A DNA stretch of 64,000 nucleotides from Phoronis australis (taxonomy: Eukaryota; Animalia; Phoronida): positions 186,001 through 250,000 of the forward strand of contig NMRA01000237.1 of assembly GCA_002633005.1 (NCBI GenBank), given 5' to 3'. The translations under genes were made by a program, and so were the position numbers. The notes under the pieces were generated by a model. It had not been told where the DNA came from, made no database searches, and worked only from the letters and a program-made list of their open reading frames with translations. Shown here piece after piece: positions 7,069 through 44,567 of the stretch. Every line of letters begins with the position of its first letter. Within the stretch, counting starts at the first letter, position 1.

Positions 7069-7190
7069 ATGCTGGTGAGGCTCCGTTGTTCATCCGCAAG
7101 TTGGACCATCTTGAGATTACTGAAGGCTACACTGCTGTGTTTGAGTGCACTGTCACAGGACGACCACAGCCTGACATCACATGGTATCAG
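7069..7190 (+). CDS. Ig domain 2, N-half
   Basis: tcttgtag|AT; DAGEAPLFIRKL...ECTVTGRPQPDITWYQ|gtgggt. Confidence 0.92.
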
Positions 7191-7734
7191 GTGGGTATTA
7201 ACAATAGCAGAACAATTTGGCAAACTAGAAAGTATGCAGAATTACATCTTCTGAAAGTGTGCAAGCAATAGGCTGTTTCGTAGACTCAAGACACTTTAAA
7301 AGCACTCGCACTGAAAAGTCTTCACTCAGAGCAGAAACGTTGAATTCTGTCCCATTATTTAGCATACCAACCTCACCGACCAATCCTGTCATTTGTCAAC
7401 CTACGTTGAAGATTTGGTGGTCATATCATTAGTTTTGTGGATATATTGGACCATGGGTTTCACTGCAGTGTTTTTTATCACTGAGTACAGTATACGTTTC
7501 TAGTCATGACTGAGCTGAATGATGTTGGACCCAGAAAGGTTATAACCAATATGATGTGTCTGCTTAAAACCCAGTGAGATTTTTGTTCACGTTTTTCTTA
7601 AACGTTGGATTAAACACCAAGTTATGGCCAGCTTGCCACTTTTTTACTATACTTGATTTCTTTTATTGATTGTTTTCTCCATGGAACATTTTCCTTCCTA
7701 TTAAATGATCATGTGTCTACATTCTTCATTCTAG

Positions 7735-7900
7735 GACCAACAAAAGCTTGAACACTCAGACCATTATGTAGTGCGCTACGATAATGGTGTCTGCACTCTA
7801 CAAATCCCTGAGGCACGATTGGATGATGAGGCTGAGTACATGTGTGAGGCAACAAATTCCATTGGATCTGCGACAACTTGGGCGGAGCTCTATGTCGAGA
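7735..7900 (+). CDS. Ig domain 2, C-half
   Basis: cattctag|GAC; DQQKLEHSDHY...DDEAEYMCEATNSIG...LYVE; A|gtaaga. Confidence 0.92.
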
Positions 7901-9005
7901 GTAAGAACATTCCATTTTGGGTGTTTTTTATTCACTCACTTACTGTAATATTTCACTAGTTTAGGACACAATATAGCAGACAGATGTATTTTTGTCCCCT
8001 TTACGTAGTACCAGTAACGCTTTACCATTTTCAAGCTTTATACCGTAGGTACCGACAGACAGTATTTTGAAAAATTGTGAGCATTCACAACAATGAAAGA
8101 AAACGTTAAATAATGAAAAATAATGTAAATTTGATAGTAATTTTGTTTGAAATTGATGATATTTTACCTAAATCCTGCCAGTTTTCTTGTTCGTTATAAC
8201 TAGCAATATATGGATGTTCTTAATTATGTTGTACAACAAGGAATGTCAAACCAGATTGGTTTTAATACCATCTGACTAATGACAATGATTAACTTACTTT
8301 ATTAGATTATTTGCTAAACTTTCGTTCTTGTTTTCATTTTTGTACTGAGTCAGGTATTCTTTTTCTTCCTCCCAGAAATGTGGGACACCGTCGAAGGTTT
8401 AGTATTGGAAGAATTTTTCCGTCTTGACGTTGATTTGCTGCTAACGTGGCCGAGGTCTAGTGAAAGCGAAACCCAACCTTCTTGATTGCTTGGACTTGAA
8501 GAGAACTGTGTGCTCTTGGCTTTTTCTTGAGTCTTTAATGTTGAAGTATAATGGGAACTACCTGTGTGCTTACGATTTGTAGAAATTAGGCTGTGTTCTT
8601 GTTTTGGCCAATTTTTAGTCTGAAAATTACTTGTTAAACAATCCTTTTTCGGCTTTCGTGTTTGAACTTAGTCAACTTTGTATTGTCTGCTTTATTGTAC
8701 ATTTTGTAAATTATAAGTTTTAATAATTATATGTCTACATTAAAGAATTATTGATTCCATTATACTTTTAACATTGCGTATGTGAATTTATTTCAATGTT
8801 GTGCTGTAATTGGTTGGGTTCACTTTCTTTGGCACCTCACAGGTGTCACCACTGCAGCAAATCAAATTGTGTAAATGTAGTCACATTTCTAATCTTTATT
8901 GAAAGAAAAATTGCATTCTTCACACACGATGATAGTCTGCATATCCATACTTGTTCATGGACTGATGAATATTCGTAATTACACAATTGCTTGTGGTCGT
9001 TTTAG

Positions 9006-13548: not shown

Positions 13549-13685
13549 TATATAAGATTTGCAGATGCACTACAAACCGTACAATTACATGACTAAAAAC
13601 TGCATTGGACAAATCAAACTCTTACTATGAAATTTCAAAGCACTATTCAATGTTCATGAAAACCACCACATCAATGATGTTGTAG

Positions 13686-13834
13686 CTGAACCTGACAGTA
13701 ATGTTGAAATTGAGGTCAAAACAGAGGTCACGACCCCAGCTGTGGAGCTCGCGACACATGAAAGTGAAGCCACCTTCGTGCTTGAAAAGGAGGCTGAAGA
13801 GCAACCTGTTGTGGTGGAGGCTGTCACCATTGAG
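13686..13834 (+). CDS. Acidic linker exon (phase 1-0)
   Basis: AEPDSNVEIEVKTEVTTPAVEL...EAVTIE|gttagt. Required to bridge to the phase-0 acceptor at 14672. An alternative in-frame acceptor exists at 13641. Confidence 0.8.
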
Positions 13835-14671
13835 GTTAGTGTCCAGATAGATGATGCTAACGGGACTCATTTTAGAAAAATATTTTCTTGCATCTAGTTG
13901 ATCTCAGATGAATGTTCTGTACCTATGACTTGATACAGAATTTCCTGATTGAATTATAGTGATCTGCTTGACTAGTCATAATTTCCTACCAGGAAATGTA
14001 ATATACCTTTGGTGTGGGTACACAAATAAAATGAATCTTGCTCTCTTTTTTCTAATTGAAACTAGGAAGAATTGATCATTCATGAGTGAATTTTGCCTTT
14101 GGACAACATCCTAATAAGCCAAAACTTAACTGTTAAGCTGCATTTTGCCACTTTTTGTCTGCCAATGAATAATTTTTAATAAATAGGTTTAAATTATTGT
14201 TTTCTTGAGACACTGGCGGTTTCGATGTTTTTTTTTTGGTGACGGTAAATGAATCCCAATATGGCTAAGGAATATTGTGGGGCCCATTTTGTGAAAGTAA
14301 AAAGCCCAATTTGATTTTCACTTTTGCCATCTAAACAGACCAAAACATGTCTTTAAATAATGATGTGCAAAACTGCCGTTGATTATTGTATATTAATTTC
14401 GTAACATGTGTCCATTGAAGCAATGCAATCTGCTATCTTTAGGACAAATGAAAATATTGTGATGTTTATCAAAGTGTCTGTGTCCAGTTTATCTGTGAAT
14501 TGGAAATGTTTGTAACGTGACTCACACTTGTTTCCTTTTCAGGACGCCAAGCCACCCTGCTTAATGGAAATGCTACTTACTTGACCCATTTATTGGTCCG
14601 TTTCCATGAAATAAAGCAACGTTGCCTATTGGAAATGTTTGATATGTGACCCATGTTTATTCCCTTTCCAG

Positions 14672-16464: not shown

Positions 16465-16786
16465 GTTGTTGAAGAAAAGATAGTCCAGTCAAAAGTTGAA
16501 GGAGTTGCTCCAACCTTCACTGTACCATTGAAGAACGTTGAAGTAAGTGAAGGTGAACCTCTTCTTCTTGAGACTGTCGTCACTGGCGAACCTTTTCCTG
16601 AGGTGTCCTGGTATCTCGATGAGGAATTGCTGAGTGACACTACGTTGTACAAGTTTGTTGTAACTAAGGAGGGCCGGTGCACCCTGGAAGTTTCTGAAAC
16701 GTTCTCTGAAGACAAGGGGGTCTACGAATGCCGTGCAGTTAATGAATTCGGGAAAGCAATGACAGCAGCTGATGTCTTGATCAGAG
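16465..16786 (+). CDS. Ig domain 4
   Basis: tattcag|GTT; APTFTVPL...EDKGVYECRAVNEFG; AGAG|gtaatt. Confidence 0.93.
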
Positions 16787-17493: not shown

Positions 17494-17983
17494 TTACTTT
17501 TGTAACATTTTTGTATTTCAAAGCACCTGAATGAATATGAGTTATGTACTTGTTATTCATTAATATGTGGAGGCACATCAACTGTCACTGTTTCCGTATT
17601 TGATAACCAGTGTGAATTGTTTTTCACCATTTGATCACAAGTGTGTGAAACCTTGCCAACTTTTTCTTTTGCACCAATATTTCTGAAAGTGATTTCCTTT
17701 TTCCTATTTCTGCACTGATGTCCATGTCAATATCAGATTCGAATATCTTGACTGAATATGAGTTCCTTATACGCTCCCTTTGGTTTCATTTGAATTCACT
17801 AGCAAACTCCACCTGAATTACCCTGATCTTCCACTGTGTCATTTTCACGTTTTCCTGTTTCTTTTGCAGTTTCTTCACTGATAAAAAGTCTGAATATTGT
17901 TTATTTGTGTGACTACTCATTTCACTGAATTTTCTTTCCATCTGTCTTAAATCTTCATGCACCTCTTTCTTAACAACACATAG

Positions 17984-20900
17984 ATGAACAACATATACAG
18001 GGTGTGGAGGATGCTCCAGAACAAGAGCCTGATCTTCAGACATTGCAACAAAGACAAGAATCATCTGCAAGTATTCTCGTATTGGGACCAGGAGTCAGCT
18101 CAACCGTTCATACATTTGTCGATGAACAGCGAGGCTCCGTGACATTAGAACTCTCTACTGGAGTTCCAGACAAAGAAGCTCATGAAATGAGTGAACTGGA
18201 GGTCGGTGTTCCTTTGGAAAAGACAGAAGTACCATCTTGCACTGAACCGTTTGCTGTGGAGCATCAGGAATCGGCTTCTCGAGACCATTCAGCCGATGTG
18301 ACTGACTCTGAAACAATGATTCCAAGTGAGCAACAATTTAAAATGGAATTACAAACTAATGTGAGCACATCTCCTGCTAAATCATTTGTCACAGAGCGGC
18401 AGGCGTCCGTTGCTCTTGAGGTGACAACAGAGGTAGCAGACAGTGACCATGACACTCTTAGCACTCAAGAGTTCAAAGTGCAGTTAAGAAGAACAGATGA
18501 AAGGTTCCCTGTTGGGTCCTTTGTCAAAGAAGATCAGAAAACCGTCCCCCTTGAGCTTACAGATGATGCAGTCGACACAGAAATCGACACTTCAACTGAA
18601 GAGGTGGTTCAAGTTCAACTGGAAAGAACTGAGATGGTGCCTGCTGTTGAGTCAAGTGTCAAAGAACAACTAGAACCTCTTCATAAGGAATACACAACTC
18701 AGTTACCAGACAATGAGACTGACATGCCCAGTGAACAAGACATTGATGTCACTTTGAAGAGAACTGATGAACACAAGCCTGTTGAGTCCTTTGTCAAAGA
18801 ACAGGAACAATTTCCTTCTGAAGAAGACACTGCTCTGGTTCCTCAGACAGAAATAAACATGTCCAGTGGACAAGATGTTGATGTCGACTTGGAGAGAACA
18901 GACAAACTTTCTGTGATTGAATCTTATGTCAAAGAACAACATGAGACTGTATTAGAAGATCAGACATCAGATGTTGAAGTTACTGACACTGAAATGTCCA
19001 GTGAAGTAGAAATCAACGTTAGCCTGGAGACAGCTGACAAACCTGTTTCCATTGATCTTTTTGTCAAAGAGCAACAGAATTTGACTCCTCAAGATTTCTC
19101 TTCTGATGTAGAAGACACTTTATCTGACATATCAGGTGAACATGGTGTTGTCATCGACACTGAAAAACCAGACACAGTGTCTGCTTTTGAGTTCTGTGTC
19201 AAAGAACAGCACCAATCTGAAGCTGGAGAACTTTCTTCAGCAGTTACCGATACTGAAATTGAAATACCCATTGATTCTTTAGTTAAAGAACAGCACAAAT
19301 CTGTTTTATCAGAAGGGACGACAGACATTGTAGAAACTGACACTGGCTTGCCAAGTGAACAAGTGACTGAAGTCACTTTGGAAAGAAGTGTAGAAGACAC
19401 AGAAGCTGAAGTTCCAAGTGAACAAGGTCTTGTCATCATCCATGAAAAACCCGAAACAGTATCTGTTGCTGAATCATTTATCAAGGAACAGGAACAATCT
19501 CTTCCCCAAGAAGCTCTATCTTTGGTGCCAGACACTGAAACTGACACTCCCACTGAGCATGCCATTGGTATCAGCTTAGACATAACTATCCAAGACAATG
19601 CTGTTGAGTGTTTTGTCAAAGAACAAGAGCAATCTCTTCCTCAAGAAGACACTACTGTGGTACCTAAAGCTGAATTAGAAATATCCAGTATGCAAGATGC
19701 TGACATCAGCCTAAAGAGCACTGACAAAGGCTCTACTGTTGAGTCTAATGTCAAAGAACAACAACTGTCTGTTCCCCAAGACGACATTGCCCAGGTACCT
19801 CAGACTGGATTGGATGAATCTATTGAACAAGATGTTGATGTTATATTAGAGACCACTGACAAACATACTGCTGTTGAGTCATTTGTTAAAGAACACCAAC
19901 AACATGATATTGTTTCACAAGATCTGACAGATGTTGCTGTTGCTGACACTGAAAAATCCAATGAAGTTGAGACTAAAGTTAGCTTTGAGGCAGCTGAAAA
20001 ACCTAGTAGTATTGAGTTATTTGTCAAAGAGCAATACAAACCTGCACCTCTAGAGCTGTCATCTGATGTGGAAGACAACGTGGTTGACACATCAGCTGCA
20101 GAGGATGTTGTTATTGATTACAAAAAACATGACACGGTGTCTGCTTTTGACTTCTTTGTGAAAGAGCAACATCAGTTGCTTTCTCCAGATGACAGTACTT
20201 TGGTTCCAAACACTGAAACTGTTGTAACCAGTGAGCAAGTCATTGAAGTCAGCTTAGAAAAAACTGACAAAATTTCTCCTGTTGAGTCTTTTACAAAAGA
20301 GCAACAGCAGTCTCTTTCGGTAGAGGATATTTGTTTGGTGCAAGACACTGAGACTGGTATGACTATTGAAAAAGTTATAGACACCAACTTAGAGAGAACT
20401 GAGAAAGATTCTACTGTTGAGTCATTTGTCAAAGAAGAAGAACAAACTCTTCCTAAAGAAGATACTACCATGGTACCTGAGACTGTAACGGACATATCTA
20501 GTCTGCAAGATGTTGATGTCAGCTTGGAAAGAACTGAGAAAGGTACTACTACTGTTGAGTCTTATGTCAGAGAACAACAGCAATCTGTTCCACAAGAAGA
20601 CATCTCTGAGGTGCTTGAGACTGGAATGGATGAGTCTATTGAGCAAGGTGTTGATGTCATCTTACAGAAAACGGAGAAAGATACGGCTGTTGAGTCATTT
20701 GTTAAAGAACAACATGATATTGTTTCACAAGATCAGACAGCTGATGTTGATGTTGCTGACACTGAACAATTCAGTGGAGTTGACATTGAAGTTAGCTTTG
20801 GGACAGCTGAAAAACCTGCAAGCATCGAGTTATTTGTCAAGGAACAACACACATCTGCACCTCAAGAACTGTCATCTAATGTAGAAGACAATGTGGTTGA

Positions 20901-23900
20901 CACGTCAGCTGCAGAAGATGTTGTTATTGATTACAAAAAACATGACACGGTGTCTGCTTTTGACTTCTTTGTGAAAGAACAACATCAATCTCTTTCTCCG
21001 GATGACAGCACCTTAGTACCCGACACTGAAACTGACATAACCAGTGGCGAAGTTGTTGAAGTCAGCTTGGATAAAACTGACAAACTTTCTCCTGTTGAAT
21101 CTTTTACAAATGAACAACAACAGCATCTTTCGGCAGAAGACATTACTTTGGTGGCAGACACTGAGACTGATATGTTTTTTGAAAAAGTTATAGACAGGAA
21201 CTTAGAGAGAACTGAGAAAGATTCTACTGTTGAGTCTTTTGTCAAAGAAGAAGAAACTCTTCCTCAAGAAGAGACTACCATGGTACCTGAGACTGTAACA
21301 GACATATCTAGTCTGCAAGATGTTGATGTCAGCTTGGAAAGAACTGAGAAAGGTACTGCTGTTGAGTCTTATGTCAGAGAACCACACCAACCTCTTCCAC
21401 AAGAAGACATCACCGAGGTTCTCGAGACTGGAATGGATGAGTCTATTAAACAAGATGTTGATGTCTTCTTACTGCAAACGGAAAAAGATACGGCTGTTGA
21501 GTCATTTGTTAAAGAACAACATGATATTGTTTCACAAGATCAGACAGCTGAAGTTGATGTAGCTGACACTGAACAATTCAGTGGAGTTGACATTGAAGTT
21601 AGCTTTGAGACAGCTGACAAACCTGCAAGCATTGAGTTATTTGTCAAAGAGCAACAGAAATCTGAACCTCAAGAACTCTCGTCTGATGTAGAAGACAATG
21701 AGGTTGATACATCAGCTGTAGAAGATGTTGTTATTGATTACAAAAAACATGGCACAGTGTCTGCTTTCGACTTTTTTGTTAAAGAACAACGTGAGTCTCT
21801 TTCTCAGGATGACAGTAACTTGGTACCAGACACTGAAACTGACATGACCATTGTGGAAGTTGTTGAAGTCAGCTTGGAAAGAACTGACAAATTTTCTCCT
21901 GTTGACTCGTTAACAAAAGAGCAACAACAACCTCTTTCGGCAGAGGACATTACTTTGGTGCCTGACACTGAGACACATATATCTATTGAAAAAGTCGTAG
22001 ATACCAACTTAGAGAGCACTGGGAAAGATTCTGCTGTTGAGTCTTTTGTCAAAGAAGAGCAACAGACTCTTCCTCAAGAAGACACTGTCATAGTACCTGA
22101 GACTGTAACGGACATATCCAGTCAGCAAGATGTTGATGTCAGCTTGGAAAGAACTGAGAAAGGTACTACTGTTGAGTCTTATGTCAGAGAACAACAGCAA
22201 TCTGTTCCACAAGAAGACATCTCTGAGGTGCGTGAGACTGGAATGGATGAGTCTATTGAGCAAGGTGTTGATGTTGTCTTACAGAAAACGGAGAAAGATA
22301 CGGCTGTTGAGTCTTTTGTCAAAGAACAACATGATATTGTTTCACAAGATCAGACAGCTGAAGTTGATGTAGCTGACACTGAACAATTCAGTGGAGTTGA
22401 CATTGAAGTTAGCTTTGAGACAGCTGACAAACCTGCAAGCATTGAGTTATTTGTCAAAGAACAGCACACATCTGCACCTCAAGAACTGTCATCTGATGTA
22501 GAAGACAATGTGGTTGACACATCAGCTGCAGAAGATGTTGTTATTGATTACAAAAAACATGACACGATGTCTGCTTTTGACTTCTTTGTGAAAGAACAAC
22601 ATCAATCTCTTTCTCCGGATGACAGCACCTTAGTACCGGACACTGAAACTGACATAACCAGTGGGGAAGTTGTTGAAGTCAGCCTGGAAAGAACTGACAA
22701 ATTTTCTCCTGTTGAGTCGTTAACAAAAGAGCAACAACAACCTCTTTCGGCAGAGGACATTACTTTGGTGCCTGACACTGAGACACATATATCTGTTGAA
22801 AAAGTCGTAGATAACAACTTAGAGAGAACTGAGAAAGATTCTACTGTTGAGTCTTTTGTCAAAGAAGAGCAACAGACTCTTCCTCAAGAAGACACTGTCA
22901 TAGTACCTGAGACTGTAACGGACATATCCAGTCTGCAAGATGTTGATGTCAGCTTGGAAAGAACTGAGAAAGGTACTACTGTTGAGTCTTATGTCAGAGA
23001 ACAACAGCAATCTGTTCCACAAGAAGACATCTCTGAGGTGCTTGAGACTGGAATGGATGAGTCTATTGAGCAAGGTGTTGATGTTGTCTTACAGAAAACG
23101 GAGAAAGATACGGCTGTTGAGTCTTTTGTCAAAGAACAACATGATATTGTTTCACAAGATCAGACAGCTGAAGTTGATGTAGCTGACACTGAACAATCCA
23201 GTGGAGTTAACATTGAAGTTAGCTTTGAGACAGCTGACAAACCTGCAAGCATTGAGTTATTTGTCAAAGAACAGCACACATCTGCACCTCAAGAACTGTC
23301 ATCTGATGTAGAAGACAATGTGGTTGACACATCAGCTGCAGAAGATGTTTTTATTGATTACAAAAAACATGACACGGTGTCGGCTTTTGACTTCTTTGTG
23401 AAAGAGCAACATCAATCTCTTTCTCCGGATGACAGTACTTTGGTACCTGACACTGAAACTGATGTAACCAGTGAGCAAGTCGTTGAAGTCAGCTTTGATA
23501 GATCTGACATGCTTTCTTCTGTTGAGTCTTTAACGAAAGAGCAACAACAATCTCTTTTGGCAGAGGACATTACTTTGTTGCCAGACACTGAAACTGATAG
23601 AACTATTGTAGAAGTCATTGACACTAGCTTAGAGAGAACTGACGAAGATACTACTTTTGAGTCTTTTGTCAGAGAACAACAACAATCTCTTCCTGAAGAA
23701 TACACGTCTATTGTGCCTGAGACAGAAAGGGACATATCCAACCAGCAAGTTGTTGACGTTAGCTTTGAGAGAACCAAGAAAGGTACTACTGTTGAGTCAT
23801 TTGTCAAAGAACAACAACAAATTCTTCCTCAAGAGGACACCGCCCTTGTGCCTGAGACTGAATTGGATGAGTCCAGTGAAAAATATGTTGATGCAAGCTT

Positions 23901-26662
23901 GGAGAGAACGGACGAGCGTACTGTTGTTGTCTCTTTTGTCAAAGAACAGCAGGAGATTGTTTCACAAGAATACACTGATTTGGTGCCACAGACTGAAGTG
24001 GAGGTTTCCAGTGAACAAGATTTCAAAGTCAGCTTAGAAAGAACTGATGAACGCACTGCTTTTGAATCTTTTGTGAAAGCACAACATGAGACTTATTCAG
24101 AAGATCAGGCATCAGATGTTGCTGTACTTGAAACTGAAAAATCCAATCAAATTGATACTGAAGTGACTTTAGAGAAAATGGACCAACATGTTAGCACTGA
24201 GTCAATGGTCAAAGAGCAACAGCATTTTCTTTCTCCAGAAGACAGTAACGTTGTACCAGACACTGATACTGACATAGCAAGTGAACATTTCATTGATGTC
24301 AGCTTGGATAGAACTGTCGAAGATATTATTGTTGAGTCTTTCGTCAAAGAACAACTGCAATCTCTTTCTCAAGGAGAAACTGGCCTGGTACCAGAGACTG
24401 AACTTGACGTGTCCAGTGTACAAGATGTTGATGTCAATTTGGAAAGAACTGGCGAACGTTTCACTGTTGAGACTTTTGTCAAAGAACAAGAGCAGCCTAA
24501 TACCCAAGAAGGCACGAACCTGGTACTAGAGACTGAAATTGATATGTCCAGCGAAAAAGATGTTGACCTCAGCTTGGAGAGACCTGAAAAGGGTACTGTT
24601 GTTGAATCTTATGTCAAAGAACAAGTTGAGACTGCTCGACAAGATCAATCATCAACTGTTGTAATTACTGACACTGAAAACTTGAGTGAAGTAGAAATTG
24701 AAGTGATCTTGGAGAAAACGGACCAACCTGTAAGCATTGTTTCGTTTGTCAAAGAACAACTCAAATCTACACCCCAAGAACTGTCATCTGATGTAGAGGA
24801 TACTGTAGCTGACACATCACTTGAGCAAGATGTTGTCATTGACTACGAAAAAACTGATTCCGTTTCTGCTATTGACTCATTTGTGAAGGAGCAAGAGCCA
24901 TCCCATTCGTCAGAAGATAGCACTTCAGTACCAGAGACAGAGACTGACATTTCCAGTGCGCTAGACTTTGATGTCAGCTTACAGAGAACTGGGAAAGGTA
25001 CTGCTGTAGAATCTTTTGTTAAGGAACAACGACAGTTTGTTCCCCATGACGACTCTGTTCTTTTACCAGAGACTGGTATTGATGAGTCAAGTGAGCAAGA
25101 TGTTGACTTTAGCTTGGAAGAAATTATCGAAAACCCTGCGGTTGAGTCCTTCATCAAAGAACAGCATGAGGTTGTTTCACAAGAAGACACTGTCATGGTA
25201 CCAGAGACTGAAACAGATGTGTCTAGTAGACAAGATATTGATGTCGAGTTAGAGAAACCTGAAAAATATTCTATTGTTGAATCTAATGTCAAAGAACAAC
25301 TTGATACTGTTCCAGAAGATCAGCTCACTGATATTGCTGTTACTGAGTCTGAAAAATCCAATGAAGTAGACACTGAAGTGAGCTTAGAGAAACTGGATCA
25401 ACTTGTAAATGTTGAGTTCTTTGCCAAAGAGCAAGACCAGCCTCTTTCTTTAGACAACACTGCTTCTGTACCAGACACTGAAACTGATGTAACCAGTGAG
25501 CAAGTCTTTGGTGTTGACTTAGAAAGAACTGACAAAGAAGCTGCTGTTGAGTCTTTTGTTAAAGAACAACAGCAATTCGTTCCCCAGGAGGATTTTACTC
25601 TGGTGCCAGAGACTAAAACGGACGTGTCCAGTGCGAAGGATGTTGACGTCAGCTTAAAAGTAACTGACAAACATACTGTTCAGTCTTTTGTGAAAGAACT
25701 GCTTGAGACAGTTCCACAACATCAGATAACAGATGTTGCAGTTACTGACATGGAAAAATCCGGTGAAGTGGAGATCAAAATTAACCTGGGGACAGTTGAC
25801 AAACCTGTTGGTGTTGAGCTGTATGTCAAGGAACAAGAGGAGTTGGCTCCTCAAGAACTGTCTACTGTTGTTGAAGGCACTGACACTGACATATCACGTC
25901 AACAGGATGTTGTCATCGACTATGAAGAAACAGATGCAGTGTCTGCTTTTGAGTTCTTTGTCAAAGAACAACACCAGTCTGATACTGGAGAACTTGCTTC
26001 AGTAGTAACTAAGACTGAAATTGAAATACCAAGAGAACAAGATGTTGAAATCAGCTTTGAGAGAACTGAAAAACCAGTTGCTGTTGAATCTTTTGTTAAA
26101 GAGCAACAGGAATCTGTTTTCCCAAAAGGGACAACAGACGTTACAGGAACTGACACTGGCTTGCCCAGTGAAGAAGTGGTGGAAGTCACTTTGGAAAAAA
26201 GTGATGAACAGTCTTTCGCTGTGTCATTTGTCAAAGATCGGCAAAAGTCTGCTTCTGAAGAACTGTTGACTAACGTTGAAGACACAGAAACCGAAGTTCC
26301 ATGTGAACAAGATGTTGTCATCAAGTTTGAGAAGCCTGAAACAGTGCCTGCTGCTGAATTATTTGTTGAGCAGCAACACGAGCCTTCTGTGCAAGAACAA
26401 GATAGTGTTGTAACTGATATAAAATCAGAGTCTAAACAACAAGATATTGAAATCAGGTTAGAGACAACTGACAAACCTCATACTGTTGAGGCTTATACAA
26501 AAGAACACCAGGTGACAGTTCCACAGGAACAAACAACTCCCCATGCCATTGTTTCCGATATCAATGTTGAGACGACAACAGTGGTTGAAGATCAGATTCC
26601 GAAAGTTGACAAGGAGTTGCATCCTGTGCAGGTGACCACGGTGATCTCAAGTGACCAGAAAG
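17984..26662 (+). CDS. Giant exon B (8,679 nt, 2,893 codons, phase 1-1): almost entirely 45-aa ESFVKEQ repeats
   Basis: ORF 18004-26715. Acceptor acacatag|AT after a pyrimidine tract. Donor AAAG|gtacaa is weak, but composition changes immediately after it. Confidence 0.88.
19900..23700 (+). repeat. Higher-order coding repeat, about 810 nt (270 aa = 6 x 45 aa), about 4.7 copies
   Basis: Anchor D/G-T-V/M-SAFDFFVKEQ at 20131, 20944, 21751, 22561 and 23371 (spacings 813, 807, 810, 810). Confidence 0.95.
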
Positions 26663-29062: not shown

Positions 29063-29317
29063 ACACTCCAGAAGCTGTTTATGTAGCTGTTAGCCAGTAT
29101 AATGCCCAGTCTGCTGAGGCCATGAGTCTGCAGGCTGGAGAGAAAGTCCTAGTCTTAGATGACTCTAGGACTGACTGGTGGCTTGCTCAGAAACTGTACG
29201 ACAAGACTGAAGCATGGGCGCCTGCCATGTATCTTCAGCCGCTAGATGAGTACTGCAGACGACTTGAGGAAGTTGTAAAACTCACGGCAGAAGATTTGCA
29301 TGCTGATAGTGCTGAGA
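29063..29317 (+). CDS. SH3 domain exon
   Basis: YVAVSQYNAQSAEAMSLQAGEKVLVLDDSRTDWWLAQKLYDKTEAWAPAMYLQP follows the SH3 pattern. gcatgcag|AC, GAGA|gtaaga; 255 nt. Confidence 0.92.
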
Positions 29318-29852: not shown

Positions 29853-30188
29853 ATTCTGATTCCGACGAAGTCCCAGCTTCTCCTATCGTCCAACTAGAAC
29901 CCTCTCGTCCCCATTTCATCTTGCCCCTTCAAAGTCAGTACATCAGCGATGGCCAACCAACCAAATTCCTGTGCAAAGTGGCGGGCACACCCACTCCGCA
30001 CGTCACATGGTTCAAGGAGGCAACCATCTTGGAACCATGTGACGACTTCCGTATGCTTTACCTTGATGATAACACCTGCATGCTGTTAATTACTGATACC
30101 TTTCCTGAAGATGCAGGGATCTACACTGTGGCTGCAAAGAATGAAGTTGGCTCTGCCTGTAGTTCTGCTCATCTAGTTGTACATGAAG
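29853..30188 (+). CDS. Ig domain 5
   Basis: Branch point gactaac, ttcttccag|AT; RPHFILPL...TFPEDAGIYTVAAKNEVG; GAAG|gtgatt. Confidence 0.93.
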
Positions 30189-30264: not shown

Positions 30265-31371
30265 GTGGCGTGTTGAAGCTTTGAGCTAACAGTGCTTTTG
30301 AGCCCATCGTCAAGTCAGGTCGGAAACCTCTGTTGGCTCGAAGCTACTCCAAGTTTTTAACACAGTATCCAGCTTGTGCATTCTTCTCTGTGACTACTTA
30401 CTAGATCCCACTCTGGCGTGAGGATCAAATTTTTAGATAGTGACTGGAGCTTTGCTTAAGTTTTCTTGGCTAGGTTTGAAATGAGTGATTGAAGTACAGC
30501 AAAACTTACAAAAATGAGACGTGCATCACTTCGTTTTTCGCTTAACTCGGGCAAAGTTCCATGGTACGGTTGTTCTAGTTTGTGCGCCCCACCCTTCAGA
30601 TTAGTCAGATATCCCCTTTCTCATATAAACTCTCGATCCTGTTTCATGTTTCACTGTCAGTATATCATGGTTTCACGCCTGAAGTCATCAGATACTGCAA
30701 AAAATACAGTCCTGCTTTAGGTTGGTTTTCATTCTTCAGTGATTCATATGTTTCTGTGTCAGCAAATACATGTTACGTTTAGTAGCTAGAAGACAACCTT
30801 TTTTACTTTGTAGTAATTTATATGGATGCATGTAAAACACAGGCTTGAAGCAGTTGTAGACCCGCATTTTGTGCAAAAAGCAAACTTTCGATTGAGACTA
30901 CTTGCCATAAGTTGGTCTCAACTTACTGAGATGAGTAGGGATTTCTGTTTTCAAAGTAATGACAGCTCGTTATTTCTTGAAACCATGCCCGGAACATCAA
31001 ATGACCTACAGAGATAAGCTGCTTTGTATAGCCTGGTTTCAAGCAATAATGAGCTGCCAGTTGTTGGAAGCCCTGCGATCATCTCCAGTTTGACTAAGGA
31101 ACGATTCAATACCAGTTTCGTAACTACAGTAAGTGGTCTTAATCAAAAGATGATTTTTGTAATGGAAGGTGGATTAATTTTTATTGCAGCTACTTTAAAG
31201 GTACTCCCCATAGATATACCATGGAACACTTGATTAATTACTTTGGCATGTCACAAGTGCAATAACTCCATTATTATTTTCTTTGCATTAGCTTTCAATT
31301 TGGTATAAGATGATTTGCAACTGTGCATCTGATCTCACATAATTAGTCATAATCCCATTGCTGACGTCACA

Positions 31372-31645: not shown

Positions 31646-31749
31646 GTGTTGGAGCTCCCACGTTCAAATATAAGCCCAAGTTCCAGCAGGTTGAGGCTGG
31701 AGAGTCTGCCTTATTTGAGTGTGCCCTCACAGCAGCGCAGGTACCAGAG
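31646..31749 (+). CDS. Ig domain 6, N-half
   Basis: cccag|GT; GVGAPTFKYKPKFQQVEAGESALFECALTAAQVPE|gtaaga. Not in the ORF track. Confidence 0.88.
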
Positions 31750-32791: not shown

Positions 32792-32990
32792 GTCCAATGG
32801 TACCACAATGATCATCTCATCTCTTTTGATGATTACCCTAACTCAGAAACTAATGTCGTATCTGATGGGACCACCCACACGGTCTCTCTAGCACTGCAGC
32901 AAGTCCGACCTGAAAACTCTGGTGCCTACAAGGTTACATGCACCACAGAACAAGGCGAAGCTACAATGACCGTATCTCTAATAGTCAGCG
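32792..32990 (+). CDS. Ig domain 6, C-half
   Basis: atcttccag|GTC; VQWYHND...PENSGAYKVTC...LIVS; G|gtgggt. Confidence 0.9.
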
Positions 32991-33672: not shown

Positions 33673-33805
33673 AAACCCAAAAAGCAACGACCGACTTCCG
33701 TGATAAGTTGCAGCGGGCTCACGTCAAGGTGGTAGAGAAGAGTTCCTCTCGAAGGTCTTCACAAATTGAGCAGCTGGACTTCAGAGATCATCTCAGAGAG
33801 ATCGA
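33673..33805 (+). CDS. Basic linker exon with two DFRxxL motifs and RRSS (phase 1-2)
   Basis: cttttatcag|AA; ETQKATTDFRDKLQRAHVKVVEKSSSRRSSQIEQLDFRDHLREI; GA|gtgagt. Needed to convert phase 1 to the phase-2 acceptor at 36574. Confidence 0.88.
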
Positions 33806-35692
33806 GTGAGTAGACATTTTCAGACATCGTCTTGAAAATAACGAAACTGGTTTAAGTATGTGTTCAGAATGGGTAGGAGGAGGGTAGTGAATTGTTTAGG
33901 TTGCAACAGTAACAATTCTCTAGTTTGGGCATTTCCTAAAACTTGGGACATGGAAATTCTGGCCGAATTTCGTTTTTCTTGATTCTAAAGATTATGATGT
34001 GGGCAATTTAGGTTTTCATCAAAGTTCTCAAATGTCGGACAATTTTGCGTTTTTGAATCAATGGAGTTTGAAAACAGACTTGATAGTTCTTAAAATCGTA
34101 AAAGTTAGCCAGCAATGTGACGTTTTCACGCGCCCTCGTAGTGTTTAATTCCGAAGTGAACGGTCGTGTGTTGTTGATTTTCATAGCCAGCATTGCCAGA
34201 TGTTTCTAAAATTTGGTACAAGCTCCAACCTTGAGCAAAATAATTAATTTTTCACTGTCCCAAATGGGAATATTTTTACCATATTTATGCTATGGACACA
34301 CCAACATCAACTTAATGGCTAAGGCCATCCGAGTCCTCTCTCTGCTTCTCTTAATGCTTTTGTTAACTCTAGTTGTTTATTGTTTGTATGTTAATCCTCC
34401 TGCTTCAGTGTTTCATATTGTCTTCTGCGTTTGTCGTATAATTTACTGTTCCCAAGTTGGCTTCATGTAACTAACATTTTTGTATTTTCTACTACCGAAG
34501 TATCTATAGACCCGGCTTCTGTCAAAGAAACGAAATTTTGATTTCGACTACTTAACCATTTTGGAACTGACACAAACTTCCTTTCTCAGATGAGAGGGGA
34601 TTTATGCTCTTAGAAAAAACTGACAGAGCTTTGTTGCTAGAGACCGTGGTCAGCGCATAAAATGACACATCGTGGCAAACCAATTTGTAGAGCCTGGTCT
34701 CAGCTCTTTCCATGAATAGAATTCACCTGTAAAATCACGTACTAAAAACAGCTTACTTGAGATCGATTTTTGATTATGGTAAATGGTTTAAATCAAAGGG
34801 TAGTTTTTGTGATGAACAGCGAGTTGATCACTGCTTAAATGTTTTTTGTAATCTCTTCTGTTCTTTTGTATTGTGTTGTATTGTATCATTGTTTAGCATG
34901 CTACGTAGAATTACTAAAATCCATTCTGTCTCCTGTCCGTGTACCACATACGAGATCTCTACACAATTTTGGTAGTAGTAGATTTAGATGTTTTCAAGTA
35001 ATTTAGTTCTAACTTTAGCCTGAGGCACTCACCAACTTTCAAGCCAATGAGCTAATTTTGCGGCCTGAAGAATTCAATATTTGGTTTTCTTAAATATAGA
35101 CTAACAACACTTTTGCACTTCACAATCACATTTCACAGCAGATTTATAGGGAGCTTTGTATTTCTGCCTGCCTTGCCTCGCTGCATCTCACTGTGCTTAG
35201 ACAAGGTTTTTAGCTGACTTCGCAAATATTTTTAAGTCTGGTCCGCATGCCACTTGCACATCATATATTCTTTGGGGTTTTTAGTTTTTCCATCAGGTTC
35301 TTGGTCCGAATCTTACGCCAAGACACTCTCATGAATTTATCAAAGTCATGTCATCTTTGCACAAATCAGATGACTTGGTTAAGACAATTTTCACTTTTGA
35401 CACCTTTGTTATGTGGAAACTAACACCAAGGCACTTCATATAAATTAACTACTTTTATTGACTCTCTCCTTCGACCAAAAGTACGTCTTGGTTAAGGCAA
35501 CTGTCTCTTACATAGGCATCGTTCTTATGTCTAGTTCATTTAACAATCTGCAAAAGTAACACCCTTTTTCTGCACATTCACAATTCACCACGCTGCATTG
35601 GTTTAGATATGGTACCACTTCACTCGACTAGCGTTCACCAGGTACTCGTGACTAAAAGCAAGTATTAATCATACTATGTTGCTAACTCACAG

Positions 35693-35773
35693 GAAAATTC
35701 GCTTTGGTACCAGGCGGTCCCTGACAGAACAAATTGACTTCAGATATTTACTTAAACCTGTTCCCAAACGAAT
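35693..35773 (+). CDS. 81-nt symmetric (phase 2-2) exon with the third DFRxxL motif
   Basis: Branch point gctaac, tcacag|G; EKIRFGTRRSLTEQIDFRYLLKPVPKR; AT|gtaagt. Confidence 0.85.
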
Positions 35774-36573
35774 GTAAGTGTAACTCGTATACTGAATGTC
35801 TTAACTCTATGTGCTACTAATTATGTGTCAATAATTTCCTGTTATTTTGTAAAACGTGTTGTAAACCTGTTAATGGAAAAGCAGTAAATTCTTTTGTTTT
35901 CAATTTCAGTTTTTTACGCCTGATGGTAATGCAACTAAATATTTGTTGGGGGGGGGGGTCTTAAAATGTGACATTGGGATTTTTATTTTCTAAACTATTG
36001 TCATGGTGCATATGATAACAGCAAATAGATTTCTCCGTATCTCTATGTATTGGAGTCTTGTTAGATGCTCATTGTTCTTGTTAAAGAGCTGCGTCATTTC
36101 TTATTCAGGCTAGGGAAAGGATAGATTACAGCAATGCGCCCAAATTGTCGAGTAAATACCAAGATCCTTTTTTAAACCCATAATCATTTTTGTGCTTTGG
36201 TAACATTTTTGTTGTTTGGTCTGCGTTTCAACTGTGCATATAATACTTTGGATATGGGATTTGTCCATTCACTCTCTAATTTTGTCTGCATTACTGCTGC
36301 ACAAAAAGCAGCTATCAGATTTTGTACATATAGAAGGTATGGATTTCTATTAAGTCATGCTACCTTGGGACTACCTGGTGATTTGTATGCTGCAAAAGAT
36401 AACTGGAATATATAAACACATACTTTAATTGTCTACTTTCTCACAAAGTTAAAAATACAATTTGGTAAATAAAATTTTAGTTTGTGTGTATGTCGAAGTT
36501 CGTTTTCGGGCTAATAAGTCACGGATTTGATGAGCTTTAGCAATGTTGACTCATCATTTCCTTTGTTTTCTAG

Positions 36574-36884
36574 ACAAGAGCCAATACCAGTATCTGACGA
36601 GAGAGCTCCATTCTTCACTGTCGTGCCAAACAGTGCACATGTCAAAGAAGGCGAGCCTGTCAAACTCACACTCACGGTCACCGGGAACCCCCAGCCAGAG
36701 GTCACGTGGTATCACGACACCACGCTCATTGAGACTGGAGATGTGTATAAGGTGACAGAGTCAGAGACCGGAGAATGGACAGTGGAGTTGGCCGAGGCAT
36801 TCCCTGAGGATGCCGGCTTGTACACAGCCATAGCCTTCAACCAGGCAGGTGAAATCAGAACGGAAGCTACGCTCATTGTGGAAG
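36574..36884 (+). CDS. Ig domain 7
   Basis: ttttctag|A (phase 2); APFFTVVP...AFPEDAGLYTAIAFNQAG; GAAG|gtatgt. Confidence 0.93.
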
Positions 36885-37803: not shown

Positions 37804-40800
37804 AATTATTCTCCGATGAAGCTAGCATCGATGCAGAGACTTCCAAACCTCGACCACAAGTCTCTGAGATCAACACTGTGCCTCAAGATGAAGAGGAACA
37901 TTTTGATATACCCTCTGCTCAGAACATAGTTGAACATTCTGGTATGCCGTCTGCTCAGACCACAGTGGAACGCTCTGATATACCCTCTGATGAGACCGTA
38001 GTGGAGGTGCAGCCTACTTTTGTGGATGGTGCTGAACAGACAACCGTGGATGCGAATATGGAATTCGTGGACAGGCCAACGCTAGAAACAATAGCTTCAG
38101 CGGAGAAAGCAGAAACAATCCCTGAAGTAGCTTTGGATGTCAAACTTGTTCCTTCAGAATCAGAAACAGTGCCTTCTGTTGTTGAAGTTGTTGGAAGTGG
38201 TGTCAGCTCACAAAAGCCTGATGAGCTGCTATCTGAACTGAGCACTGCTGAGCTTGCTGTGACAGCTGAGGATGCAACACCTGTTGATGTTGAGTTTGAC
38301 TTCCCTGTTGCTGAGGAAGACTCTGTCGTCCCCTATCTTGTAACAGATACTCCTGTGTTCACTGGAGAAAGTGAAGACAAGCCAACAGAAAAGTCATCTG
38401 AAACAGTCTCCATTGAAGTTCCTGTTGCTAAAGACACAGAGTTGAGTGATGTTCAGGTGGAACTCAAGCCAGATTTTGAAACAGAGATTGCTCATGCTTT
38501 CATCGAGTCCTCTGACAAACCACGTGTGGTTGATCTACAGACATCCCCAGAGAAATATACGGCTGGCATTGATGTTATCTGCGCGGGGGAGGCAAATGCT
38601 GATGATGTTCACCTTGACATAGTTGACACTAAACAGCCTGAAAAGGTGGTAGTGGAGTTTGATCTTGGAGGTGGTCCAGTGGAATCAGTGATGGAGACTG
38701 AACAGGAAGGCGTTACAGCTCCGACATCAGCTGAAATTTCATCAGTTGTTCAAATGGAACCTAGTGAACTTGTTTCTACTGCTCCACTGGTTACTGAAGG
38801 CACAAAAAAGGTCGTAGTGGCGTTTTATGAGCATAAACCCACAGATAAGACATCGGCTGAATTTCTTGAAGAGCATACTCCAGAATCTGTACAAGACTTA
38901 GTAATTAAATCTACTCCGGAGGATGAAGTGTTAGAGTCACAAACTGAAAAACCTGCTGAAGAGGCATCAGTTCAACTCGATGTGAGTTCATCAGAGGATT
39001 TGAAGACAACTGAACTGATGTTGTCTCGTGAAGCTTTAACTCCTGAGTCAACCCCTGAAGTTTCTCTTATTCTGGAAATTCTAGATCAGTCATCTGAAGC
39101 CATCCTCTACAGCACGGAACCTGAAGTTGAAGTTCAATCTTCTGATGTGCAGCCTGTTGAATCTAATGTTGCAATTGCCCAGACAGACAAAGACACAGCA
39201 CCCGAGTCAACTTTTGAAGTGCCAACAGCAACATGTGAAACTGTCAGCATGAACATTGAAGTTGACTCACATCAAGTAAAACCCATTGAAATGATTGTGC
39301 AGGTACCAAAGCAAGCAACAGATGGTTCGCAAAAGTTTGTTTTGGAGTTAGACGTGGATAAACCTTCAGAAGAATTACCATCAGAAGAGCTGGATTCCGA
39401 AATGATGCAACAAGTTCCAGAGGAATTCATTCCTGAACAATCTGTTCATTATCCAACAACAGATGATCATTCGCCGCAATCTTCTGGGGTGGTGGAAGTC
39501 AAATTTGATGTAGGACCATCTGTAACACATAGAGAGTCTGAAGTTCATGTATATCCATCTGTTGAAAGTGTAACAGAATCAGTTTCTGATGTACCCAGTG
39601 TAAATGGGGTGACGGATATTTCAACTGAAGCTCAACCCGTTGTTACAGCAAGCCAGAGTGACGTTGCCTTGCAGCCAGTGGCACAGCAGATGTCAGTAGC
39701 CCTAGAACATGTCCCTGAATCCACTTTTGAGGTGCCCAGTGAGATATCACCAGGGACGGCAAGCACTGAAATCAAATTTGGATCCCAACATATAAAGCCA
39801 ACGGAAATTATAGTTCCGGTTTCCCAAGAATCAACTAAAGATGTCCCATCAAAGGTAGTGGAGGAAGAGGTCACTTATGAATTGTCTGAGGAATCGATGC
39901 CTGAAATATCCATCGGATATGATACACCAGTGGAGGTGGCTGAACTTAAGTTTAGTGTAGGTTCATCGTCTGAATTAGAATCAATACAGATGGCGGTTTC
40001 TCCAGGGACAACTCCAGAAAGTTTTGAACAAATTGAGTCTGAAGTTCCTGGCTCTCTTGAAGTCACTGACATGCTGTCTGAAGCCAACATTGATGTTGTA
40101 AAAACCAATGATCGTGCAGAACCTGTCGAGTCAGAGCCTGTCACAATGCAGGTATCTGTTGTAGAAGTAGAGAAAGATGTGTTGCCAGAAGATACAGTTG
40201 AGGAACAAACTGAAATATCTCCAGACGTAACGAGTGTACAAATTGACGTTGGTTCAGAGGAGAGAAAACCAACAGAAATAATAGTACCAATCCCACAGGA
40301 GTCAAGTGAAGAGTCGCAACGAGTTACTTTGAAGTTCACTGTTGACAAACCTGCAGAAGATCACTTGTCAGAAGAATTAGATGTGGACAAGACACGTGAA
40401 ATTTCTCCAGAGACAACAAGTGTAGGGATTGAAGTTGGATCAGAGGACAGAAAACCAACAGAAATAATAGTACCAATCCCACAGCAATCTACTGAAGAGT
40501 CCCAACAAATTACCTTGAAGTTTGCTGTTGACAAACCTGCAGATCAACTATCAGAAGAATTAGATTTGGATAAGACATGTGAAATTTCTCCAGAGGCAAC
40601 AAATGTACAGATTGAAGTTGGTTCAGAGGATAGAAAACCAACTGAAATAGTAGTACCAATCCCACAACAATCAGCTGAAGAATCACAACAAGTTACTTTG
40701 AAGTTTGCTGTTGACAAACCAGCAGAAGATCAACTCTTGGAAGAATTGGATGTACACAAGGCACGTGAAATTTCTCCAGAAACAACAAGTGTAGGGATTG

Positions 40801-43800
40801 AAGTTGGTTCAGAGGATAGAAAACCAACAGAAATAATAGTACCAGTCCCACAGCAATTGACTGAANCGAGTGTACAAATTGAAGTTGGTTCAGAGGAGAG
40901 AAAACCAACAGAAATAATAGTACCAATCCCACAGGAGTCAAGTGAAGAGTCGCAACGAGTTACTTTGAAGTTTGCTGTTGACAAACCTGCAGAAGATCAA
41001 CTCTTGGAGGAATTGGATGTAGACAAGACGCGTGAAATTTCTCCAGAGACAACAAATGTAGGGATTGAAGTTGGATCAGAGGACAGAAAACCAATAGAAA
41101 TAATAGTACCAATCCCACAGCAATCGACTGAAGAGTCGCAACAAATTACTTTGAAGTTTGCTGTTGACAAACCTGCAGAAGATCAACTCTTGGAAGAATT
41201 GGATGTAGATAAGACACGTGAAATTTCTCCAGAGACAACAAGTGTAGGGATTGAAGTTGGATCAGAGGACAGAAAACCAACAGAAGTAATAGTACCAATC
41301 CCACAGCAATCTACTGAAGAGTCCCAACAAATTACCTTGAAGTTTGCTGTTGACAAACCTGCAGATCAACTATCAAAAGAATTAGATTTGGACAAGACAC
41401 GTGAAATTTCTCCAGAGGCAACAAATGTACAGATTGAAGTTGGTTCAGAGGATAGAAAACCAACTGAAATAGTAGTACCAATCCCACAACAATCAGCTGA
41501 AGAATCACAACAAGTTACTTTGAAGTTTGCTGTTGACAAACCAGCAGAAGATCAACTCTTGGAAGAATTGGATGTACACAAGGCACGTGAAATTTCTCCA
41601 GAAACAACAAGTGTAGGGATTGAAGTTGGTTCAGAGGATAGAAAACCAACAGAAATAATAGTACCAGTCCCACAGCAATTGACTGAAGAGTCGCAACAAA
41701 TAACTTTGAAGTTCCCTGTTGACAAGCCTGCAGATCAACTGTCAGAAGAATTAGATGTGGACAAGACACATGAAACTCCAGAAGAATTGGTACCTGAAAT
41801 TTCTCTAGACTATGAAACACCAAAAATAATGCATGAAAAGCTTGCTGAGAGTGCAGAACATATGTTCGACATTGGTCCGTCACCTGAACTGAAACCATTT
41901 GAGCTGAAACCAACCGAAATCCATGTGACACCGTCTGAAATTGCTACTGTTGATAAATTGACTGGTGTATCTCAGGAAGCAGCAGTGCTACCCATGGAGA
42001 CTGTGGTAACTGAAGCTGATGTTGGTTTGTATGACTTAAAGGCTGTAGATGAGACTTTACTAACTCAACAGATCAAAGACACGCACAAGATTGTTGTGGA
42101 AGTGGGTGTCAGAAGCCATGGAGAAGAAATTTCACCAGAAGAACTGCAGATGATGGTTACACCAGAGATGCCTGTTGAAACTGTGTCTCTTGAAATTCAA
42201 AAACCAACACCAGAGGCTGCTGAAGGAATAGTTGAAGATTCGCTCACTCCGGCTCCCCATACCACTGAGTCTTCAGAAGTTTCTTCTGAATCTTCTGTGC
42301 AACTGTCTGTAACAGAAGAGACACAAGACTTTGAGATGAAACCGCTGTTTGCTCCTGAAGTTATGGAAGACAGCAGCCAAAGGATTTCTGAAGATGTTGA
42401 CCATGCTGAACATCTCGTCCATTCTGTTAAGGTGGAAAAAGAAATTGAATCTCAACAAGAGTTAGTTACGGTACCAAGTGTGAGCGAAACCACCTCTGTT
42501 CAACACGACGTTTTTGAAGGTTCTGAGGAAGTGAAACCTGTTGATTTTCATGTTGCTGCTAGTCCAGATTCTCTCGACGTCACCACTACTGCACCTGTGG
42601 TTACAGAAAGGAAACCTCTTGAAGCTGCGTCTGATGTAAAAATTCCAATCCAGGAAGTTTTAAAATCAGTTGGAACACATGAAGTTGAACAAGATGTAGC
42701 GTCAACTGTCATGTCTGAAACTTTCGTTTGTCAGGAGAACACAGACATAATTGAACCTGATACTGGTATGGAGACTGAAGGATATCAGACCTCTTCAGTG
42801 CAATTTGCAGTAACTCCAGACTCCTCAGACGTCAATTTAGATAAGAAGGTCTCCGAAACTTTCTATGTTAAGGGAGAAGAGGTGGAGTCTACACCTGCAG
42901 ATTTGTTGACTGAAGTGCAAAGCAGTTTTACTGAAGAAGCTAGACAAGAAGAAACAGACTACCAGTTGGTGGTATCACCCGAAACTTTTCCGTCTCAAAC
43001 AACTCTTCTCAGAGAAGTGGATGCTAGTGCTGATGATGAAAAGAAAGAAGCTTTAGAAATTGAAGTACCCATTGACCAAGCAGCTGAAGATGTTTTGCGC
43101 AAAGACTCTTATGGTACTGAATCTATTCCACATGACTTGAAAGAAACGTCACCTACCACAGAGCATGTAATCCCCATAGATGTAGGGGAGAAAACTGACC
43201 TACAAACTTCTATCACAGATTCTGCTCAGCTTAGACCAGAGTATGGGTTCCAAGAAACGCATATTGGCGTTACTGTTCCCTCTGTCTCGGGATCAGTTTC
43301 TGATGAGGTGTCAGCTGATCTTAGAATTCCTGCAGAACAAGAATCACCTGACAAAGGTATTGAAGAATTTGAAGAACTTGTTGTTCATAGTTCAATGCCA
43401 CTCAAACAACCCACAATTCAGTTTGAGGCTCCCGTTGAAAGTACAGATGATGTTGAACCATACACATTGGACACTTCAGAAGCCGTTGAAGTCCCTGCTC
43501 TCTCAGAAGAAGTCACCGCACTGGACCTTGTAGCTCAAGATGTTAAAGACATAAGCATCGACGAGAATGTCACTTTCCAGTCGCCCTCAATTCCTCAACT
43601 TCACGACGTTTCTGTTGATGCTGGCTTTCCCACTCAAAGGCCATCTGAGGGTGATAGCACTACGGTTGCTCACACATTGGAAGAAGTGGCCCCATCCACT
43701 GAGGAATTTTTTGATGCTGAAACAATCGAAAGTGATTCACCAAGGGAAGCTGATTACCTTGATGCTTCAGAAGAACCTGATGTTACACAACATGTTAAAG

Positions 43801-44263
43801 ACATTGCATTTGAAGAGCAAGTTGTCTCAACCACTGAATCCCATCTTGCTGATGACTTTGATGTTACCAGCCAACTGGATGTGGTACCATCTCAGACACA
43901 GATTGTTTCAGTTGTTAAGGAATCTCCATCCCAACGGCAACCTATAACAGTATCTTCTGAAGATGTTGAAGTCATGCCTCTTCTTGAGACTCATCAAGTA
44001 CCCACTTTTGCTGACATCCAAGATGTTGAGGAAACAAGACTGCAGAGAGACATAACAGTGACTCCTGCGTCTGAAGATTCTGATTCTGTCAAACCACTAG
44101 ATACTGTGCCATTTAGAGAAGAATCACCCATCAAACTTGACTCTATCTCTGAGGATACGCCTCCAGAGTTTTTGACTCCTTTGGCTGAGCAGGAAGTGGA
44201 AGAGCGCAGCATAGCAAATCTCGATGTCAAGGTTTCCGGCCACCCTCTACCAGAAATAACTTG
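37804..44263 (+). CDS. Giant exon C (6,460 nt): E/V/S/T/P-rich spacer with 60/61-aa repeats, ending in the N-half of Ig domain 8
   Basis: ORF 37779-44267. ttttgtcag|AA; ends PPEFLTPL...VSGHPLPEIT TG|gtgaga (phase 2). Contains one N at 40866. Confidence 0.88.
40205..41790 (+). repeat. Coding tandem repeat, 180/183 nt (60/61 aa), about 8-9 copies; degenerate copies near 39200 and 39720
   Basis: Unit EISPETTSVGIEVGSEDRKPTEIIVPIPQQSTEESQQITLKFAVDKPA(E)DQLSEELDVDKTR. Confidence 0.93.
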
Positions 44264-44567
44264 GTGAGACATATAACATAACTGTTCCATTAATATGTCA
44301 AAAAGCTGCAGCTTCCTCTTACAAATCTGTATAGACGTTGTTAAAGAGCATTGATTATTCTTAAAAGTTAAAGTTTTGAATTGAAAATTTCTTTTATGCC
44401 CTTAAGTTGATACAACTACTTCAGTTTAGCATGATCCATGAAACCCGTGTGAGACATGGAGTGAATTTTTTTCTATGAAGTCGCGATATTACTTACCAGT
44501 TTACCATTCAAATCTCATCAGACCATTCTTTCCCCCACTGCATGCATTGCACCTCTATCTCCACTAG

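Follow-up and report, generated by a model that had tools for sequence, protein, structure and literature searches.

DFRxxL motifs are known from MLCK, where they are spaced 28 residues apart. Smooth-muscle MLCK has three of them within its first 75 residues, and long MLCK has five (PMC2196421, PMC4586593). With three motifs, one peptide binds per three actin monomers with a Kd of 0.26 μM, at an actin site that differs from those of other thin-filament proteins, and the free motif peptide is largely unstructured (PMC2196421). The 75-residue motif region undergoes one-dimensional diffusion along actin bundles and stress fibres, but not along single filaments (PMC4586593).

Molluscan twitchin, a 530-kDa thick-filament mini-titin with Fn3 and kinase domains, is a second system to compare. 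Its D1 linker, which connects Ig7 and Ig8, is said to contain DFRxxL motifs and to be alternatively spliced, in work ascribed to Funabara 2003, Kusaka 2008, and Butler 2010. Twitchin has a PKA site in the Ig7–Ig8 linker, and its actin binding drops on phosphorylation (PMC12040844, PMC7589332). An actin-binding sequence of the MyBP-C M-domain was first recognised by its likeness to twitchin, and this domain also binds myosin S2 in a phosphorylation-dependent manner (PMC7721898). In the M-domain chain of cMyBP-C (PDB 2LHU), we found motif-like hexamers at residues 31 and 59, that is, 28 residues apart, among RRxS sites.

Attachment of titin to actin in the middle of the I-band is disputed for vertebrate muscle, since binding of N2A was proposed and then not reproduced: UN2A–I81 did not co-sediment with actin and I80–UN2A–I81 did not co-localise with it (PMC8042602). 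Human titin UN2A nevertheless has a DFRxxL match, which lies within the solved helical bundle (PDB 7NIP). The N2A region of a char titin has two DFRxxL matches, at residues 3311 and 3357 (46 apart), and aligns with both UN2A (7NIP, E 2.7e-11) and the MyBP-C M-domain. Sallimus-type I-band titins have giant optional exons of elastic type (PMC9886281), and the known actin binding of Sls belongs to the kettin part near the Z-disc (PMC2963174); further background on the family is given in PMC3114093 and PMC12198301. Within this protein family, earlier work has already described the DFRxxL motif, its occurrence in tandem, and inter-Ig linkers in which it is combined with kinase sites. In a literature search that covered mainly open-access papers, DFRxxL appeared, by title, with MLCK only and not with twitchin, and no description of a DFRxxL array in an I-band titin was found.

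The locus described here lies in a 64-kb window, the whole stretch of Phoronis australis DNA that was analysed. The window covers part of one giant plus-strand gene, both ends of which fall beyond it, with tandem I-set Ig exons, one SH3 exon, three very large acidic exons, and a total of more than 6,300 residues of acidic spacer. The layout is like that of Sallimus/I-connectin-type I-band titins, in which tandem I-set Igs are broken by giant, alternatively spliced low-complexity spacers. The regions where such a titin would have a Z-disc N-terminus with kettin-type repeats and C-terminal Fn3 domains fall outside the window. Unlike in Sallimus-type titins, the spacers are not true PEVK; they consist of 45-residue repeats rich in E, D, V, S, and T, with 4–8% Pro. 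The upstream giant spacer exon (17974–26662, plus strand, acceptor not fixed) is optional and encodes about 2,890 residues in 45- and 270-residue repeats with a net charge of about −506. The downstream one (37804–44264, plus strand) encodes a spacer of about 2,115 residues with a net charge of −343 and ends in the first half of Ig8.

Some further features of the spacers were observed. A 45-residue period is present at positions 3–4022 and 17986–26661 of the window, in the second case with a 270-residue higher order. The short open frame at 13631–13897, acidic and flanked by Ig exons on both sides, resembles another small spacer exon. Position 40866, in the repeat region of the third giant exon, is a single N that leaves the frame open, and the repeat number at this place may be an assembly estimate.

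Twitchin and obscurin were ruled out as the identity of the gene. Twitchin is excluded by the absence of Fn3 and kinase domains in the 20 frames scanned with Pfam and by the more than 6,300 residues of acidic spacer, the present protein, which combines Igs, acidic spacers, and an SH3 domain, being far larger. Obscurin/UNC-89 is excluded by the order of an SH3 exon and then I-set Ig exons, and by the absence of RhoGEF in the same 20 frames.

Two I-set domains on the plus strand flank the segment of interest. The upstream one, Ig6, is encoded by two exons (31646–31749 and 32792–32990) and matches residues 713–809 of a protein of the gastropod Elysia chlorotica that is described below; the downstream one, Ig7 (36574–36884; Pfam I-set, E 3.4e-19), is 46% identical to residues 929–1008 of the same protein. 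Between them, the original prediction had placed two small in-frame exons with three DFRxxL motifs at spacings of 28 and 24 residues, and this was confirmed: both exons have AG/GT ends and compatible phases, they preserve the reading frame from the Ig exon that ends at 32990 to the one that starts at 36574, and their three motifs (starts at 33693, 33777, and 35736) are the only DFRxxL matches in all six frames of the window. The numbering of Ig6 and Ig7 is also correct, once a split Ig at 7077–7914 is counted.

Exon A (33673–33805, plus strand, as are all features named here; 133 nt, phase 1 to 2) encodes motif 1, DFRDKL (33693–33710), and, 28 residues on, motif 2, DFRDHL (33777–33794). Between the two lies RRSS (33750–33761), a Ser-rich site predicted to be a canonical PKA-type site of the form RRx[ST]. 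Exon B (35693–35773; 81 nt, phase 2 to 2 and therefore symmetric) has AG/GTAAGT ends and an open frame and is a predicted cassette exon. It encodes motif 3, DFRYLL (35736–35753), which matches the pattern, and a basic Ser/Thr site, RRSLT (35712–35726), which fits only the relaxed kinase patterns R-x-S and R-x-x-T. Exon B repeats the unit found in exon A, RRS followed by EQ-hydrophobic-DFRxxL, and is the sole open phase-2 symmetric candidate in the 2.8 kb from 33806 to 36573 when a cassette filter is used. No further motif-bearing or IQ exons were found in the four flanking introns with the pattern and the cassette filter. In Markov simulations of the 3.6-kb inter-Ig region, one plus-strand match appeared in 46 of 1000 runs and two appeared in none.

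Like MLCK, the locus and its Elysia counterpart show exact tandem D-F-R-x-x-L hexamers, spaced by 23–36 residues in a non-domain segment, with a copy number that differs between isoforms in MLCK and is predicted to do so here. Unlike the N-terminal array of MLCK, the present one is internal, placed between two I-set Igs and adjoining giant acidic spacers; two copies are shown to be spliced in, the window has no kinase, and there is no significant match to MLCK beyond the motif. Exon A alone had no relative among 1.84 billion representatives, in a word search, in metagenome contigs, in Pfam, or in the PDB, and the likeness to MLCK therefore rests on the short motif.

Four RNA sets of unspecified tissue under the same species label were mapped; less than one-fifth of each was read. 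The gene is expressed on the sense strand at a low depth of 2–6× in runs X1 and X2, and exon signal is absent from run X3 and contig set X4, which gave repeat-derived reads only. Intronic repeat fragments at 34203–34265, 35220–35253, and 31057–31168 attract many off-target RNA reads on both strands.

Three reads of X2 cross the joint 32990>33673, and all seven junction reads downstream of exon A (four from X1 and three from X2) take the joint 33805>36574, skipping exon B. No reads fell on exon B, and the bin 35623–36023 had zero depth in all four runs. A second mapping, which used the same records and is not independent of the first, gave identical joints and an X1 depth of 0.54 in the wider bin 35462–35832; since these reads showed zero depth in the bin starting at 35623, this depth would come from intron sequence before exon B. 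It corresponds to about 200 sense-strand bases of X1 reads at 35462–35622, a stretch that was taken as unspliced intron and contains no cassette candidate. With no inclusion reads vs seven skipping reads, the rough 95% upper bound for inclusion of exon B is 0.27–0.35 in these samples. Since exon A is spliced in and exon B is skipped in all reads, the RNA establishes the form with two motifs; the one with three is predicted to arise by inclusion of the cassette. The module had originally been called triple, with joints 32990>33673, 33805>35693, and 35773>36574; three motifs are indeed encoded and the first of these joints is used, but the other two were not seen, and the RNA shows the two-motif form only.

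These reads could also mean that exon B is a duplicate that has decayed or is not used, in which case the module would have two motifs only and its motif number would not be under splice control, although the array may still bind actin. The weak polypyrimidine tract of exon B (0.6) fits this explanation, as do the read counts. We consider it decidedly improbable. The exon has kept an intact frame, a consensus GTAAGT donor, a symmetric phase, and the exon A-like unit, and nothing else of this kind occurs in the 2.8 kb around it; the motif count in Elysia exceeds two; optional exons occur elsewhere in the gene as well; and the gene is expressed in only two of the four sparsely read sets.

Other exons of the gene were also seen to be optional. 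The 8.7-kb upstream spacer exon is included in X2 (joint 26662>27533, six reads) and skipped in X1, where five reads run to 27533 from the Ig exon whose end is near 16785 (the loose ends match 16755–16784). Because this exon is a cassette, spring length differs by about 2,890 residues between the samples. The SH3 exon (29063–29317; Pfam SH3_1) and the Ig5 exon (29853–30188; I-set), both symmetric and on the plus strand, are skipped together in some transcripts (joint 27745>31646, three reads of X2). Sense-strand reads of X1 and X2 extend across the first 600 nt of the downstream giant exon. The module was originally placed between two giant spacers, and both spacer exons are there; the placement holds for X2, but in X1 the upstream spacer is left out.

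The closest sequence found was the hypothetical protein EGW08_001885 of E. chlorotica (RUS90390.1; 4,767 aa), which was among the 26 matches obtained with an upstream Ig as a query among long proteins. It is matched by 19 of 20 pieces of the window, the SH3 being the exception. The best matches of 18 of these 19 pieces follow each other in order along the protein (the maximum in 200,000 shuffles was 12), and for 17 of the 19, RUS90390.1 scores above the 27 other proteins compared. The order of the Igs is colinear, at 31–56% identity. The gene model has Ig5 but lacks the SH3 and the upstream spacer, which are optional here, and it has an acidic spacer of 1,400 aa after Ig7, in the same place as the downstream giant spacer. 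The Elysia spacer (1011–2410) shows a weaker, 46-residue period and no clear sequence match to the spacers of the window.

The Elysia linker between Ig6 and Ig7 contains four DFRxxL motifs, at residues 817, 840, 863, and 899 (spacing 23, 23, and 36), which are the only ones in the 4,767 residues. The counterpart of motif 1 is DFRDQL, at an equal distance behind the upstream Ig, and the EQ-hydrophobic sequence that precedes motif 2 also precedes three of the Elysia copies. The best match of exon A in RUS90390.1 is to 811–846, and exon B matches 860–869 and 896–908. The motif residues D, F, R, and L and the preceding EQ are kept, whereas the flanks and the charge differ: the Elysia linker is acidic, with a net charge of −12 vs +3 and +6 for exons A and B. 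For Elysia, one DFRxxL came up in 27 of 2000 shuffles and two in none; these shuffles and the Markov simulations rule out a chance origin of the motif array.

The motif array can be called conserved because the colinear Elysia protein has a DFRxxL array in the same inter-Ig linker, a result that gives sequence-level support to the original reading of these hexamers as candidate actin-binding motifs and that bears out the expected conservation of the DFR residues in orthologues. This conservation rests on one orthologue (n = 1). As the array is kept in Elysia, it appears to be under selection in at least two lineages, which do not share the basic charge and the PKA-type site.

Other searches returned sequences of a different kind. 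With Ig7 as a query, only a SPEG-like kinase of Saccoglossus, a titin-like fragment of Mya, and two unrelated contigs were obtained, all without the motif. A lone DFRxxL match is present in one of two hemicentins. In 22 of 23 vertebrate titin fragments, one DFRS[VI]L occurs just behind an Ig in the N-terminal part (around residue 1660 in bird fragments); orthology of the linker with this single near-N-terminal DFRSVL is unsupported, as that region is not the one selected by the flanking Igs. At Elysia 3528–3650, an Ig whose best char match is the Ig before UN2A (57.8 vs 51.6 bits, a weak difference) is followed by a degenerate DWKSQL.

A conserved motif need not be an actin-binding motif. The hexamers could be kept without any actin binding, either for a different partner (myosin rod/S2, or in calmodulin-linked regulation) or for folding (helical packing as in titin UN2A and the tri-helix bundle of MyBP-C). 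The human UN2A match sits in a helical bundle, the region does not bind actin in PMC8042602, and the MyBP-C M-domain does bind myosin S2 (PMC7721898). A single-sequence structure model of exon A has two helices, at a pLDDT of 76 and a pTM of 0.48; it is weak and does not discriminate between the readings. In Elysia, an IQ motif directly follows Ig7 (Pfam IQ, 1038–1057), and none was found in the window gene. The tri-helix bundle itself was ruled out by the PDB searches: exon A and the exon A/Elysia-linker profile gave no match at E up to 10, neither to UN2A nor to MyBP-C, although the char titin segment does match 7NIP. A string of short linear motifs fits better than a fold, because the copy number (two, three, or four) and the spacing (23–36) vary and the sequences between the motifs are unconserved. 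On balance, we regard a role without actin binding as quite unlikely.

With respect to charge, exon A has a net charge of +3 (43 aa) and exon B of +6 (26 aa), and the most positive 43-residue stretches in the three giant exons reach −1 to −3. The segment, originally called strongly basic, is so in relation to the giant exons, and the term holds only in this relative sense. The prediction had further included PKA-type sites interleaved with the motifs. Here RRSS in exon A fits RRx[ST], but RRSLT in exon B does not, and the linker of the one Elysia gene model, which may omit optional exons, has no such site. In having a PKA-type site in an inter-Ig linker of a titin-family protein, the segment is like D1 of molluscan twitchin, and in having hexamers 28 residues apart together with RRxS between two Igs, it is like the M-domain of cardiac MyBP-C (2LHU, 5K6P). 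Unlike in twitchin D1, the PKA-type site is not kept in the single orthologue.

These likenesses invite the analogy of a PKA-released, catch-like clamp, in which the unphosphorylated motifs would pin the spring to the thin filament, with a reduced working length as the result, until cAMP signalling led to phosphorylation of the interleaved sites and to release, as in twitchin. The canonical RRxS between motifs 1 and 2 is consistent with such a switch, there being no RRx[ST] in the approximately 6,300 residues of the giant exons, which are, however, Arg-poor (1–2%). PKA phosphorylation of twitchin, with one of the sites between Igs, lowers actin binding (PMC12040844), and in 2LHU motif-like hexamers and RRxS sites are likewise interleaved. 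Against this, the Elysia linker is acidic and, in a gene model that may omit cassette exons, has no RRx[ST]; the second site is non-canonical and its exon was skipped in all seven reads; and the MLCK peptide slides on actin bundles (PMC4586593). A clamp of this kind is thus unlikely. Phosphorylation at the single RRxS may weaken actin binding in this lineage, but on present evidence the site is not a conserved part of the design.

The reading that we prefer, with a probability of roughly 0.6, is that this stretch between two Igs of a giant I-band titin-like protein is a conserved tandem DFRxxL array and, by analogy with the MLCK array, likely binds the side of the actin filament. The transcripts seen have two of the motifs, and a third is predicted to come with the cassette exon. 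The motifs in exons A and B are the only three in the window, exon A is joined on both sides in RNA, and Elysia has an array in the same linker. Related inter-Ig linkers bind actin in twitchin (PMC12040844) and in MyBP-C (PMC7721898). A motif match is not sufficient for binding, as is indicated by human UN2A (PMC8042602) and by the lone hemicentin match; the high affinity of MLCK was measured with three motifs, but the form shown here has two; and the comparison draws on one orthologue and a read depth of 2–6×.

If the array is a tether of this type, the spring would be attached to the thin filament immediately before the downstream spacer of 2,100 residues. Most of the stretch would then fall on the region C-terminal to the tether, or sliding friction would damp it. 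The number of motifs, which is likely set by splicing (two or three here, and four in Elysia), would set avidity. By analogy with the MLCK peptide, which diffuses on actin bundles (PMC4586593), the grip is probably dynamic or sliding and not a rigid clamp, and the clamp of the original prediction is weakened by this as well as by human UN2A, which has a DFRxxL match and did not bind F-actin (PMC8042602).

What appears to be new, within the mainly open-access literature covered, is a DFRxxL array in the middle of an I-band-type titin that is conserved in a gastropod and whose copy number is likely set by splicing. Should the tether and the switch both apply, the I-band spring of soft-bodied invertebrates would contain, midway along it, a dedicated and genetically defined site that anchors titin to actin. 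Splicing would tune this anchor, through the choice between two and three motifs and the inclusion or skipping of spacers, and in this lineage phosphorylation would release it. Nature would then provide an example of the disputed mechanism by which actin-bound titin has less free spring, and twitchin would be joined by a second linkage of the catch type; we consider this full picture unlikely. The locus offers a titin-family spring with natural two-, three-, and four-copy versions of the array (the three-copy version being predicted) and one candidate kinase site, so that a small construct with clear mutants would allow a direct test. With the tether alone, the finding would be a known motif in a new position; were the switch to hold too, it would add a regulated, passive load-bearing link to invertebrate muscle.
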